Source of the DNA: Escherichia phage WPEC2
Length of the DNA: 64,000 nucleotides
Reading direction: 5' to 3' (one strand)
Sequence record: PV691511.1
Shown here piece by piece: positions 44,056 through 45,341 of this stretch (its first letter is position 1; each line of letters begins with the position of its first letter). The position numbers and the translations under genes were made by a program. Below the pieces are notes generated by a model. It did not search any database. It was not told the DNA's origin and was given only the letters and a program-made list of their open reading frames with translations.

Positions 44056-44541
44056 ATGTTTCAAGTAAATGTCAATGTGCATAATAGTTACTCTGATTGT
44101 GAAACGTGTGGCTATAATTCATCTAATGTTATTCGTATTAGTGGCGATTTAGGAGAAGCTTCTTTTGGAGAAGAAGCAAGTTGCTTTAGTGGTATGGATG
44201 CAGAATGGAATGATATTGCACATTGGTTAGTGAGCAAACTAAAAGAAAAAGAGAAACCATTTCCTACTCTGCTTGATCGTTCTCTTGTGGAAGATGCAGG
44301 TAAAGCATATGCAGACTATGCGTATGCAGACGGGAAATATTTGGAAGATGATAAGGCTAACCATTTGCTTTATGTTTACTATGAAGCTGAATCTGCCTAC
44401 GATAATTATTACAGCATGTCTAACATCCTACGTCTGTTTGCAGAGTTTGATATTTATTTCGAAGTAGAATTTTCAGAAGATGATACTTACGAGTACAATT
44501 CTTATGATCCATTTGAGGAGGAAGAATGCCAAGACGAGTAA
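44056..44541 (+). CDS. acidic hypothetical protein, cotranscribed with sirtuin
   Basis: 161 aa, Asp/Glu/Tyr-rich; overlaps sirtuin start by 16 nt. Confidence 0.55.
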   Translation: MFQVNVNVHNSYSDCETCGYNSSNVIRISGDLGEASFGEEASCFSGMDAEWNDIAHWLVSKLKEKEKPFPTLLDRSLVEDAGKAYADYAYADGKYLEDDKANHLLYVYYEAESAYDNYYSMSNILRLFAEFDIYFEVEFSEDDTYEYNSYDPFEEEECQDE

Positions 44542-45341
44542 TTTTTGTAAGCGGTGCAGGTTTAAGCGCAGACAGTGGGATTCGAACATTTAGAACAGAC
44601 ACAGATAGTGGTCGTGCTTTATGGGAAGAATATGATTTAGAAGAGGTCTGCGATATTGGAGCTTTCCAAGCAGGTTATCGTGTTAGAACATCTCCAGATC
44701 TTCCAGTGGTCGGTGGTGTAGACGAGAACGGTATGGATTTGTATGCCAAAACACACGAATTTTATAACAAAAGACGTGTTGAGCTTAAAGATGTACAACC
44801 TAATGCTGCACATATTCAAATAGCAAAGTGGTTTAAGGAATATCCTAACCAAATAGTAAACTTGACAACAAACGTTGATGATCTACTAGAGCGAGCAGGT
44901 GTAGACAGAGATTCTGTTATTCACGTACACGGATATCTTCCTGAAGTAGTTTACCGTATGCATCCTGGAGATTACAAAACACTGGTAGATATTGGTTACA
45001 ATAGTATAAACATAGATGATTATAACTGGGTGAAGCCTAATGTTGTATTTTTTGGTGAGGCTGCACCTTTGTATGCAGATATGGCTCACTTGTTCGATAC
45101 TTTGACCATGCAAGATTTGGTTGTAGTAGTAGGATGTTCAAACCAAGTTATCAATTTTAATTGGGAATTATTTCCTGCACTTAGTATGGGTACAAAAATG
45201 GTTGTAGTTAACCCTGGAGTTAATTACGAAGAAACACTTCTCTATGAAGATCGTGGAGTTTTTGTTTACCGAGAAAAAGCTGCAACAGCCTTCAGCAATG
45301 AAGGTTTCATTAAAATGGTCGAAGACCACTTAAACAAATAA
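44526..45341 (+). CDS. Sir2-family (CobB-like) sirtuin lacking Zn-binding cysteines
   Basis: 271 aa; GAGLSADSGIRTFR, QPNAAHIQIAKW, TTNVDDLLERAG, VIHVHG, VVFFGE, VVVVGCS align with CobB motifs; no CxxC pairs; ATG after GAGGAGGAAGA SD. Confidence 0.8.
   Translation: MPRRVIFVSGAGLSADSGIRTFRTDTDSGRALWEEYDLEEVCDIGAFQAGYRVRTSPDLPVVGGVDENGMDLYAKTHEFYNKRRVELKDVQPNAAHIQIAKWFKEYPNQIVNLTTNVDDLLERAGVDRDSVIHVHGYLPEVVYRMHPGDYKTLVDIGYNSINIDDYNWVKPNVVFFGEAAPLYADMAHLFDTLTMQDLVVVVGCSNQVINFNWELFPALSMGTKMVVVNPGVNYEETLLYEDRGVFVYREKAATAFSNEGFIKMVEDHLNK

Follow-up and report, generated by a model that had tools for sequence, protein, structure and literature searches.

The gene sir2 of Escherichia phage WPEC2 encodes a complete sirtuin of 271 residues, which is best explained, at a probability of roughly 40%, as a catalytically competent, CobB-like protein deacylase. 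The window analysed here is a stretch of 64,000 nucleotides (PV691511.1) from the genome of a Phapecoctavirus, a virulent myophage. The phage sirtuin gene has been catalogued before and is routinely annotated as a Sir2 deacetylase, and nothing in it is peculiar to WPEC2. Both exact proteins of the unit described below are already public, the sirtuin under the label "Sir2 NAD-dependent deacetylase". What is new is a conserved, translationally coupled acidic Cys3 partner in the phi92/phAPEC8-like phages; the movement of sir2 as a single-gene cassette is also reported here. About a thousand of the phages sequenced so far carry a sirtuin of this clade, among them the model phage T5 and many candidates for phage therapy. 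Earlier in silico work on the Vibrio phage sirtuins also read them as deacetylases and measured their transcription during infection (PMC5107563). In the literature searched, no report was found of the enzymatic activity, substrate or phenotype of any sirtuin of the phage clade.

The sirtuin gene is the second of two genes in a small unit:

43969..43998, plus strand: predicted sigma-70-like promoter, TTGACA, 18-nt spacer and extended -10 TGgTATAGT
44013..44037, plus strand: intrinsic terminator, hairpin of 11 bp with 6 GC, then a U tract
44046..44051, plus strand: Shine-Dalgarno AGGAGG of the partner gene, read from the sequence
44056..44541, plus strand: partner gene, 161-residue acidic protein with a pI of 4.05 (PHROG 9509)
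44515..44521, plus strand: Shine-Dalgarno GAGGAGG of sir2, lying within the partner ORF and kept in the metagenomic relative L012
44526..45341, plus strand: sir2 gene, 271-residue sirtuin of the phage clade PHROG 2162
45349..45366, plus strand: intrinsic terminator, hairpin and U tract, closing the partner-sir2 unit

The first-pass annotation had described an overlapping two-gene unit with terminators on either side, and both descriptions are borne out. The two reading frames overlap by 16 nt, ATGCCAAGACGAGTAA, and hairpins with U tracts flank the unit at the same two places where terminators are annotated in the GenBank record of Schickermooser, which is 99.6% identical here. The folded stretches containing them have energies of -18.8 kcal/mol (44013-44037) and -13.9 kcal/mol (45349-45366). 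The promoter, with 11/12 consensus matches plus the TG in a consensus scan, sits within the 3′ end of the upstream ORF. The overlap measures 13-16 nt in relatives and is kept across three lineages, in which the unit also retains its own promoter, two strong ribosome-binding sites and the flanking terminators. The predicted promoter and both terminators are found again in Bas62 (L005) and in L012, where the partner is just 32-37% identical. A search of the leader RNA gave no Rfam family at the gathering score. The terminator at 44013..44037 ends the upstream unit, yet falls inside the 5′ leader of the partner-sir2 operon.

The sir2 protein scores 80.5 bits for Pfam SIR2 (PF02146), where the cutoff is 24 (E=1.9e-22), and it matches PHROG 2162 over residues 2-271 (E=2.8e-104) and CobB in the PDB (E=7.6e-19). 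Because of these E-values, a chance resemblance to sirtuins is far excluded. In the AlphaFold model (pLDDT 90, pTM 0.87) the Rossmann domain and the small domain superpose on those of solved sirtuins. A Foldseek search returned CobB 1s5p as the best match (TM 0.84, 29% identity), followed by archaeal Sir2 and SIRT5, and the top 50 matches are all sirtuins. The protein had been called a phage-encoded, CobB-like one that follows CobB/Sir2 motif by motif, with structure prediction proposed as a check. CobB is indeed its nearest solved relative, in sequence and in Foldseek; the six motifs quoted at that time are all present in the translation and align with E. coli CobB; and the model confirms a sirtuin Rossmann core closest to that of CobB.

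Conservation covers the whole catalytic core. Among 47 homologues of 55-76% identity, GAGxS, F22/R23, PNxxH96, TTN116-V-D118, H135-G, KPNVVFFGE178, G203xS205 and N229 are invariant. Equally invariant are Y80 and R83, which align to Y92 and R95 of CobB, the YxxR dyad of class III. Of 84 homologues whose motifs could be parsed, 82 contain the string 'FYNxxR'; in the alignment of the jumbo phage sirtuins the arginine at Y+3 is not conserved. The loop KPNVVFFGE, which serves peptide and acyl-lysine, is canonical, and an alignment with other sirtuins shows the canonical acyl-lysine tunnel residues to be kept. One segment sets the protein of these phages apart:

44673..44738, plus strand: insertion of 22 residues, 50-71, into the helical small domain, from the alignment

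The insertion is modelled at a pLDDT of about 91 and is specific to the phi92/phAPEC8-like phages when compared with the T5, rV5-like, Vibrio and jumbo phage sirtuins and with CobB.

The complete fold and motifs, the class III dyad, the canonical FGE loop and the matches to NCBIfam deacylase families all argue for a deacylase. The top NCBIfam matches are deacylase families without exception, the scores being far under the cutoffs of the CobB families (85.9 vs 320 bits for NF040867, 106.3 vs 243 for NF001753). No PADLOC family, defence-type Sir2 models included, matched sir2 at E<=0.01. Defence-associated Sir2 NADases have a Sir2 Rossmann core without the Cys4 zinc ribbon, and in this feature the phage sir2 matches them. 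With ThsA, DSR1/DSR2, Sir2-HerA and the Sir2 proteins associated with short pAgo it further shares NAD+ as the predicted substrate and a putative role in phage-host conflict. However, sir2 differs from them in having no PADLOC match, no sensor domain and no HerA or pAgo partner, and it keeps the deacylase-type FGE loop and small domain. The protein is single-domain, and SLOG, HerA, pAgo or a large C-terminal domain were found neither in it nor in its neighbours. Judged by its sequence, sir2 resembles deacylase-type sirtuins and not the Sir2 NADases of defence systems.

In the reading we prefer, host RNA polymerase would start at the sigma-70-type promoter of the unit, probably early, and transcribe both genes as a bicistronic message. 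The nearest cellular relatives of the phage clade appear to be the CobB/SIRT5-type (class III) deacylases. The enzyme would use NAD+ to strip acyl groups from lysine, either acetyl or negatively charged groups of the succinyl type. Its targets would be host or phage proteins during infection, and its products nicotinamide and O-acyl-ADP-ribose. The acidic protein would act outside the catalytic machinery as an accessory factor that regulates the enzyme, directs it to its targets or is itself its substrate, and may contact the enzyme physically. Host CobB has been reported to restrict T4 and lambda, and because of that report the gain of a phage from a CobB-like activity is puzzling (PMC4271551). 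The function of the clade bears in turn on the same report.

In place of the canonical substrate-contact motif GTSxxVxPA stands an invariant GCSNQVINFNW; therefore the substrate of sir2 may not be a peptide. Such a motif suits the role in RNA repair that Iyer, Burroughs, Anantharaman and Aravind proposed for the clade in 2022 on the strength of the cluster of RNA ligase, kinase and phosphoesterase genes to which the sirtuin of rV5-like phages belongs (PMC9503650). The sirtuin would move ADP-ribose from NAD+ onto an RNA 2′-phosphate in the manner of Tpt1/KptA, cleaning the ends of host or phage RNA (tRNA, for example) cleaved by host anticodon nucleases for the phage RNA ligase. In rV5-like Bas51 the order is indeed RNA ligase, cREC-like protein, sirtuin and MazG-like protein, adjoining polynucleotide kinase and phosphoesterase, and jumbo and rV5-like phage sirtuins are embedded in RNA-repair, NAD-salvage or Nudix neighbourhoods. 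The sirtuins of rV5-like phages and T5, on which the proposal is built, share 46-52% identity with the sir2 protein, whose invariant Tyr/Arg dyad could in principle hold a phosphate and not a carboxylate. Schickermooser carries homologues of the Bas51 kinase, Rnl1, phosphoesterase and MazG at 31-48% identity, but there some 30 kb separate them from sir2. When the window was probed by tblastn with proteins from rV5-like phages, T5, jumbo phages and Schickermooser, no RNA-repair, NAD-salvage, Nudix or HAD gene came up. Nor does the unit or the window contain the RNA ligase, kinase, cREC, MazG or 2H genes of an RNA-end-repair neighbourhood. Here sir2 belongs to a separate, insulated unit whose other gene encodes an unrelated protein. 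The acyl-lysine tunnel is retained, the proposal rests on gene context, and such a reaction is not known from any sirtuin. The likeness to the RNA 2′-phosphotransferase Tpt1/KptA lies in the proposed chemistry only, NAD+-dependent transfer of ADP-ribose to a phosphate (PMC9503650); the folds are unrelated, and no sequence or structural similarity was found. We regard RNA repair as possible but unlikely. A choice between deacylation, RNA repair and NAD-centred immunity would close a real gap in what is understood of NAD in phage infection.

The preferred CobB-like deacylase would have to function with no Cys4 zinc site. The segment concerned is as follows:

44931..45044, plus strand: zinc-module remnant, residues 136-173, with the beta-strands kept and the cysteines absent

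Cysteine occurs just twice in the sir2 protein, as C42 and C204, and the stretch from the catalytic H135 to E178 in the FGE loop contains none. In the alignment, the positions of the zinc cysteines of CobB are taken by Y143, I161, I163 and D164. The first-pass annotation had singled out a CobB-like sirtuin without zinc-binding cysteines; the absence stands, but it is not distinctive, being clade-wide and already published. Within the zinc segment of 99 homologues, cysteines number zero in 67, one in 32, and two or more in none, and the absent ligands were reported in 2016 for the sirtuins of the Vibrio phages phiSt2/KVP40 (PMC5107563). The loss of the Cys4 site is, on these alignments, common to every phage-clade sirtuin examined and not special to this copy. 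As for the supposed loss of the whole module, the structure prediction agrees that the ligands are gone, but strands 136-144, 152-155 and 168-173 are still modelled at a pLDDT of 95-97. The small beta-module presumably folds with no metal, its four ligand cysteines having been replaced across the clade, which makes the clade a naturally occurring case of the sirtuin small domain folding without structural zinc.

The partner had been noted as an Asp/Glu-rich protein of 161 residues, and its composition agrees: it contains 37 D/E against 10 K/R, and with a pI of 4.05 it is the most acidic among the 62 ORFs of at least 100 residues in the window. It gave no sequence match in Pfam, NCBIfam, PADLOC or the PDB. 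Its AlphaFold model (pLDDT 89.5, pTM 0.78) is folded over residues 1-145, and a structure search with the model matched no characterised fold. Two features stand out:

44098..44184, plus strand: putative metal site, the Cys3 motif C15-E-T-C18-G followed by G38, A41 and C43
44479..44538, plus strand: acidic C-terminal tail, residues 142-161, with low-confidence disorder modelled at 147-159

The sequence C15-E-T-C18-G lies at the tip of a long modelled beta-hairpin formed by strands 2-15 and 19-30. In the 18-19 members of the family, which diverge down to 22% identity, C15, C18, G19, G38, A41 and C43 are the sole invariant columns. On the homologues collected, the partner belongs to a small family found in phages only, with three invariant cysteines that are a putative metal site. 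His9 was considered as a fourth ligand and rejected, as it is not conserved across the family. Within the tail, residues 147-159 have a pLDDT below 50, and the final codons overlap the ribosome-binding site and start codon of sir2. C158 and the EEE run are there because GAGGAGGAAGAATGCC is the Shine-Dalgarno sequence and ATG of sir2; C158, forced by the overlapping start codon, was rejected as a metal ligand as well.

An enzyme stripped of all four zinc ligands, translationally coupled to a protein with an invariant CxxC...C at a hairpin tip, could be half of a split sirtuin whose lost structural zinc module is provided in trans by the Cys3 hairpin. The zinc-module segment of the enzyme, however, is still present and confidently modelled, and the sirtuins of T5-like, rV5-like and Vibrio phages have neither the cysteines nor the partner. 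In addition, partner homologues occur away from sirtuins, and only three cysteines are invariant. We consider such complementation extremely improbable.

Relatives of the sirtuin were found in about 990 phage records, from T5-like, rV5-like, phi92-like, Vibrio and jumbo phages, at 30-96% identity (tblastn). The PHROG 2162 clade, to which belong the T5 'cobb putative transferase' and the sirtuins of rV5-like, phi92-like, phiSt2/KVP40 and jumbo phages, is homologous to sir2 over the full length and has no Cys4 site; EVC(N/D)I and GCSNxVINF are shared with the T5, rV5-like and phi92-like sirtuins. The present copy differs from the rest of the clade by its insertion, its location outside an RNA-repair, NAD-salvage or Nudix neighbourhood, and its coupling to the acidic Cys3 protein. 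Linkage of partner and sir2 is seen only in phi92/phAPEC8-like phages and is kept where the partner is just 32-37% identical. About 850 other phage records have the sirtuin and no partner, and the remote relatives of the partner that jumbo and T4-like phages encode do not adjoin any sirtuin. A scan of IMG/VR for further partner loci gave a single locus. Phages of different genera have exchanged sir2 as a single-gene cassette, independently of the partner allele, and several divergent sir2 alleles (67-77% identity) circulate within one genus. Of the cotranscribed acidic partner claimed earlier, the overlap and the linkage hold up within the phi92/phAPEC8-like phages; the partnership is weakened by the records without it, the unlinked homologues and the independent exchange of alleles. 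The case for an accessory role is weak because most phages with the sirtuin have no partner and the alleles recombine freely. Two proteins encoded upstream of sir2 elsewhere were compared with the partner and rejected as relatives, T5 ORF094 (hhalign probability 0.2%) and the cREC-like Bas51_0217 of the rV5-like phage (2%). Matches of the partner profile to the long repeat proteins P0136 and P0138 come from a short 'DxCGN'-like repeat motif and were taken as spurious.

In its layout, a short ORF running into the start of the enzyme gene that follows it within one transcription unit, the pair resembles a type II toxin-antitoxin system. The acidic protein might hold a harmful, NAD-consuming or ADP-ribosylating sirtuin inactive until a trigger releases it, for example to exclude competing phages. 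The overlap of 13-16 nt in three lineages and the autonomous promoter-to-terminator cassette would fit; but the alleles of the two genes recombine freely, the phage is virulent, and the sirtuin is of the deacylase and not the NADase type. Moreover, the sirtuin is not intrinsically toxic to infection, because about 850 phage records have no such partner. An arrangement of this kind is very unlikely.

Sirtuins of the SirTM class are ADP-ribosylating enzymes encoded in macrodomain-linked operons with an acidic carrier protein, GcvH-L. The WPEC2 unit is analogous in that a sirtuin shares an operon with a small acidic protein, a possible substrate. It differs from SirTM in having no Macro domain or lipoate ligase gene, in keeping the catalytic His, and in a partner unrelated to GcvH. 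Pfam matched no Macro domain among the proteins on either side of the unit, nor does the Schickermooser record annotate one nearby. The SirTM class is cited in PMC8556138 and PMC9503650.

The neighbourhood of the unit could point in another direction. The same strand carries, 3.3 kb upstream, a gene for a close homologue of T4 Vs.4 (Pfam Acb2_Tad1_hairpin, 1.2e-16; PDB 7uq2, 1.8e-28), and a DNA-methyltransferase-like gene lies 0.7 kb upstream of the unit. Vs.4 is Acb2, which blocks CBASS as a cyclic-nucleotide sponge. The pair might be one among several accessory cassettes against immunity in this arm of the genome; the sirtuin would then ADP-ribosylate or deacylate a host immune or regulatory protein or act otherwise on NAD-centred immunity, and the acidic protein would serve as a targeting subunit or as an independent nucleic-acid mimic. 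Cassette exchange between genera and divergent alleles form a pattern common in conflict genes, and the extreme acidity and disordered acidic tail of the partner agree with such a role. Still, the argument is guilt by association, PADLOC gave no matches, and the literature searched holds no report of it. No sirtuin-type anti-defence protein is known, and use of NAD+ by the enzyme would worsen an immunity based on NAD depletion, not relieve it. A function in counter-defence is, like RNA repair, possible but unlikely.

Decidedly less probable is a two-subunit effector, in which the partner would dock onto a host protein and hand it to the sirtuin, which would deacylate or ADP-ribosylate it at the expense of NAD+. 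The metal-binding fold of the partner would then be new and its acidic tail would resemble nucleic acid, and the target might be an immune or regulatory protein that binds DNA or RNA. If true, it would be the first sirtuin-based module for anti-defence or host takeover, located in an accessory arm near Acb2 and diversified by cassette exchange. The contribution made here is modest, and the partner and the sirtuin offer a tractable two-protein system for experiments.

As a presumed CobB-like deacylase, sir2 shares with E. coli CobB (1s5p, 6rxj) and human SIRT5 the YxxR dyad and the FGE loop along with the motifs for NAD binding and catalysis. In contrast to them it is a virulent-phage gene product with no N-terminal regulatory extension, no zinc cysteines and a replaced GTSxxVxPA motif, and it has C42 at the position of CobB A76. 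V117 likewise aligns with CobB I131. Both A76 and I131 are named as engineered positions in the titles of PDB entries 6rxm/6rxq/6rxs.

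The sir2 gene and the gene for its acidic partner overlap by 16 nt in the window, in agreement with the overlapping ORF pair of the first-pass annotation:

44056..44541, + strand, partner ORF, 161 aa
44526..45341, + strand, sir2 ORF, 271 aa
44013-44037, terminator-like hairpin with U tract, upstream of the partner gene
45349-45366, terminator-like hairpin with U tract, downstream of sir2

The terminators claimed on both sides are borne out by these two U-tract hairpins, and terminators are annotated at precisely these sites in the GenBank record of the Phapecoctavirus Schickermooser, which has 99.6% identity in this region. 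Directly upstream of the terminator hairpin, not downstream, lies a predicted sigma-70 promoter close to consensus, its -10 extended (promoter and hairpin at 43969-44037, + strand); transcripts begun at this promoter would need to read through the hairpin. The order of promoter, then hairpin, is an odd one and is conserved in three lineages. The leader hairpin may act as an attenuator or stabilise the 5′ end. In all three lineages examined sir2 is followed by a 90-aa ORF (45385-45657, + strand; PHROG 15991, a family of unknown function), with a hairpin of its own on either side (45349-45366 and 45661-45684, the second bidirectional).

Over 43900-45500 the window matches Escherichia phages WPEC1, WPEC4 and WPEC6 at 100% identity, and about twenty further Phapecoctavirus genomes (subfamily Stephanstirmvirinae) at 99.4–99.8%. 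These records label the 271-aa product "Sir2 NAD-dependent deacetylase"; the 161-aa product is a "hypothetical protein". The exact sirtuin sequence is already public in 89 contigs and the exact partner sequence in 102, and neither gene is new as sequence or annotation. The earlier observation is correct and careful, and concerns a sir2 gene for which sequence, annotation and published discussion all exist. What can be added is the description of a conserved, translationally coupled Cys3 acidic protein with no fold match, and the cassette-like mobility of sir2.

The sirtuin passes Pfam SIR2 (80.5 bits; cutoff 24) and matches PHROG 2162, "Sir2 (NAD-dependent deacetylase)", end to end (E=2.8e-104); all sirtuin motifs quoted in the first pass are found in the 271-aa translation. 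Among solved structures, E. coli CobB is closest to it in sequence (1s5p, E=7.6e-19), with archaeal Sir2 and SIRT5 next. The AlphaFold model, computed with 47 homologues as input, is confident (pLDDT 90, pTM 0.87), and the top 50 Foldseek matches are sirtuins only, CobB first (TM 0.84 on target, 29% identity), then Af-Sir2 and SIRT5. Invariant in the protein and 47 homologues of 55–76% identity are G10-A-G-x-S14, F22-R23, P92-N93..H96, T115-N116-V-D118, H135-G136, K170-P-N-V-x-F-F-x-E178, G203-x-S205 and N229, which are the columns required by sirtuin chemistry. Y80 and R83 align with Y92 and R95 of CobB, the Tyr-x-x-Arg dyad of class III sirtuins. Taken together, the family matches, the model, the invariant residues and the dyad suggest that the sirtuin is an active enzyme in the deacylase lineage. 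C42 and V117 align with CobB A76 and I131, which are engineered positions according to the titles of PDB 6rxm, 6rxq and 6rxs. By profile score the protein is not an orthologue of CobB, because NCBIfam CobB-type models score below cutoff (86 vs 320 bits and 106 vs 243 bits). No PADLOC model for a Sir2 protein of the defence type is matched. A 22-residue insertion, residues 50-71, is specific to phi92/phAPEC8-like sirtuins, as is the partner gene.

The sirtuin contains two cysteines only, C42 and C204. As the first-pass annotation had claimed, there is none between catalytic H135 and E178, the glutamate of FGE, the stretch where sirtuin zinc ligands usually stand; the CobB cysteines of this segment face Y143, I161, I163 and D164 in the HMMER alignment. 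Structure prediction upheld the sirtuin fold, CobB first. The segment itself is kept in the model as strands 136-144, 152-155 and 168-173 (pLDDT 95-97) and appears to fold without metal. With these strands retained, a split sirtuin whose zinc module is supplied in trans seems very improbable.

Relatives of the sirtuin were found by tblastn in 989 phage records, with identities of about 51–60% in T5-like, 46% in rV5-like, 95% in phi92-like, 37% in Vibrio and 30–39% in jumbo phages; the T5 gene is annotated "cobb, putative transferase". In an alignment of clade representatives with CobB, no phage representative has a cysteine pair in the zinc segment. Among the 99 closer homologues that could be parsed, this segment has no cysteine in 67, one in 32 and at least two in none. 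The loss of the zinc site is thus common to the whole phage clade and already published, not peculiar to the window sirtuin. Skliros et al. 2016 (PMC5107563) described the lack of a zinc ligand in the Sir2/CobB finger domain of Vibrio phages phiSt2, phiGrn1 and KVP40, suggested salt bridges in place of zinc, and listed T5, SPC35, GAP32, My1 and JD001 as carriers of the gene. Most viral sirtuins were grouped as one distinct clade by Iyer et al. 2022 (PMC9503650). On sequence grounds the window sirtuin belongs to this known zinc-less clade, whose role is only predicted; our literature search found no report of activity, substrate or phenotype for any phage sirtuin.

We favor, with a probability of roughly 40%, a CobB-like NAD+-dependent protein lysine deacylase without structural zinc, which would be expressed from its own sigma-70-type promoter with the acidic protein as a dispensable accessory. 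This reading is preferred because both the acyl-lysine/peptide loop and the class III dyad show full conservation, every top family match is a deacylase, and no signature of a defence-type NADase is present. However, an invariant GCSNQVINFNW stands in place of the canonical substrate-contact motif GTSxxVxPA, host CobB was reported to hinder T4 and lambda (PMC4271551), and the sirtuin gene lies amid RNA-repair genes in other phages. From such neighbourhoods in rV5, Mydo, SP15 and jumbo phages, Iyer et al. 2022 (PMC9503650) proposed a Tpt1/KptA-like role in RNA repair. Schickermooser carries the rV5-type set (PseT-like kinase, Rnl1, phosphoesterase and MazG-like protein) at a distance of about 30 kb from sir2, and a search of the window did not find it. 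KptA-like repair by this sirtuin is considered unlikely. Other possibilities, an inactive protein among them, take up the remainder.

The partner is Asp/Glu-rich as described earlier (37 Asp/Glu vs 10 Lys/Arg; pI 4.05), the most acidic of the 62 called window ORFs of at least 100 aa. Its one family match is PHROG 9509, of unknown function; Pfam, NCBIfam, PADLOC and the PDB sequences gave none. When 1.84 billion representative proteins were searched with a profile, only 17 clusters came up (E<=0.001); the matches inspected, two long repeat proteins left out, are small (111-221 aa), with a phage or phage-like context for every contig examined. Over 18-19 members, down to 22% identity, only C15, C18, G19, G38, A41 and C43 are invariant. 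In the confident AlphaFold model (pLDDT 89.5, pTM 0.78), strands 2-15 and 19-30 form a long beta-hairpin that bears the CxxC at its tip; a helical bundle comes next, and the acidic tail is disordered from residue 147. Given the lack of family matches, the invariant cysteines and the hairpin, the partner thus represents an orphan family that probably has a three-cysteine site, at which we infer metal binding. The C-terminal "EEEEC" was rejected as a conserved motif, since it is forced by the overlapping sir2 Shine-Dalgarno and ATG (GAGGAGGAAGAATGCC). The Bas62 homologue bas62_0184 (4938-5492 of locus L005) is called 'putative aminoacyl-tRNA synthetase' in the BASEL GenBank record; neither sequence nor predicted structure supports the name, probably an annotation carry-over from nearby bas62_0192.

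The partner is present in 131 phage records, and in phi92/phAPEC8-like records whose match reaches its C-terminus a Sir2 gene lies under that match. Bas62, whose partner is 37% identical, and a metagenomic relative, with 32% identity in the partner and 71% in the sirtuin, both retain the gene order and an overlap of 13-16 nt; they also keep the upstream promoter, hairpin and ribosome-binding site and the downstream terminator. Conservation of order, overlap and signals speaks for a functional link. The sirtuin is found without the partner in about 850 records. T5 and rV5-like proteins upstream of sir2 were compared as possible partner relatives and rejected as unrelated. Distant partner homologues without an adjoining sirtuin occur on a T4-like contig, on an 85-kb contig and in jumbo phage pEa_SNUABM_12; their loci in T4-like and jumbo phages are:

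L009, 634-1588
L010, 3513-4528 (equal to L015, 24050-25065)
L011, 57-497 and 1505-1954

In all of these a DUF5856 gene lies beside or within three genes of the homologue; in Erwinia phage pEa_SNUABM_12 it is annotated 'starvation-inducible DNA-binding protein'. The two longer loci (L010/L015 and L011) also have a thymidine kinase at a distance of a few genes. Downstream in the jumbo-phage locus are a NADAR-domain gene, three genes on, and an RNA ligase, at 5 kb.

DNA identity of the window to Bas62, which belongs to a different genus (Justusliebigvirus), is 38–56% over the partner gene and the flanks. It rises to 90–100% precisely at the start of sir2 (44533), stays there until about 45232, and then drops to about 55%. 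This identity profile indicates a recent single-gene exchange of the sir2 cassette, one breakpoint lying at the gene overlap. The converse mosaic is found in phage MirsaeidiM_Esher1 (partner 97.5% and sirtuin 67.8% identical). Partner-less records, unlinked homologues and allele mosaics count against an obligatory pair, and a sirtuin-partner interaction, if any, is not allele-specific. A toxin-antitoxin-like or exclusion module seems improbable.

Upstream of the unit the same arm of the genome carries:

37860-38603, same strand as the sir2 unit, calcineurin-like phosphoesterase
40464-40739, + strand, close homologue of T4 Vs.4, 91 aa (Pfam Acb2_Tad1_hairpin 1.2e-16, above cutoff; PDB 7uq2 1.8e-28)
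upstream, same strand, DUF7275/DUF7277 protein gene
upstream, same strand, DNA-methyltransferase-like protein gene

T4 Vs.4 is Acb2, the cyclic-nucleotide sponge blocking CBASS. Its homologue lies 3.3 kb upstream of the sirtuin unit and is only 'hypothetical' in WPEC4 and Schickermooser. The arm looks like an accessory, partly counter-defence region. A counter-defence effector role for the sirtuin or its partner, which these neighbours would suit, is about as doubtful as RNA repair.

The junction at 37536/37537 unites genome regions about 50 kb apart in every Phapecoctavirus record, with primase/helicase, glycosyltransferase and endolysin on one side and the phosphatase-to-sir2 arm on the other. 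Either half of a 600-bp probe spanning it has 100% matches in many records, but 0 of 50,697 phage records contain the junction itself. It reflects either a rearrangement or a chimeric assembly. Lying 6.5 kb from the sirtuin unit, it is without effect on the sirtuin finding. WPEC4 is colinear with the window from 37537 onward only. Its preceding 12 kb, outside the window (25000-37500 of locus L002), is annotated with dozens of 'hypothetical proteins' of 30-60 aa; this pattern points to a tRNA or non-coding region that was left unannotated, or to faulty assembly of the WPEC records.
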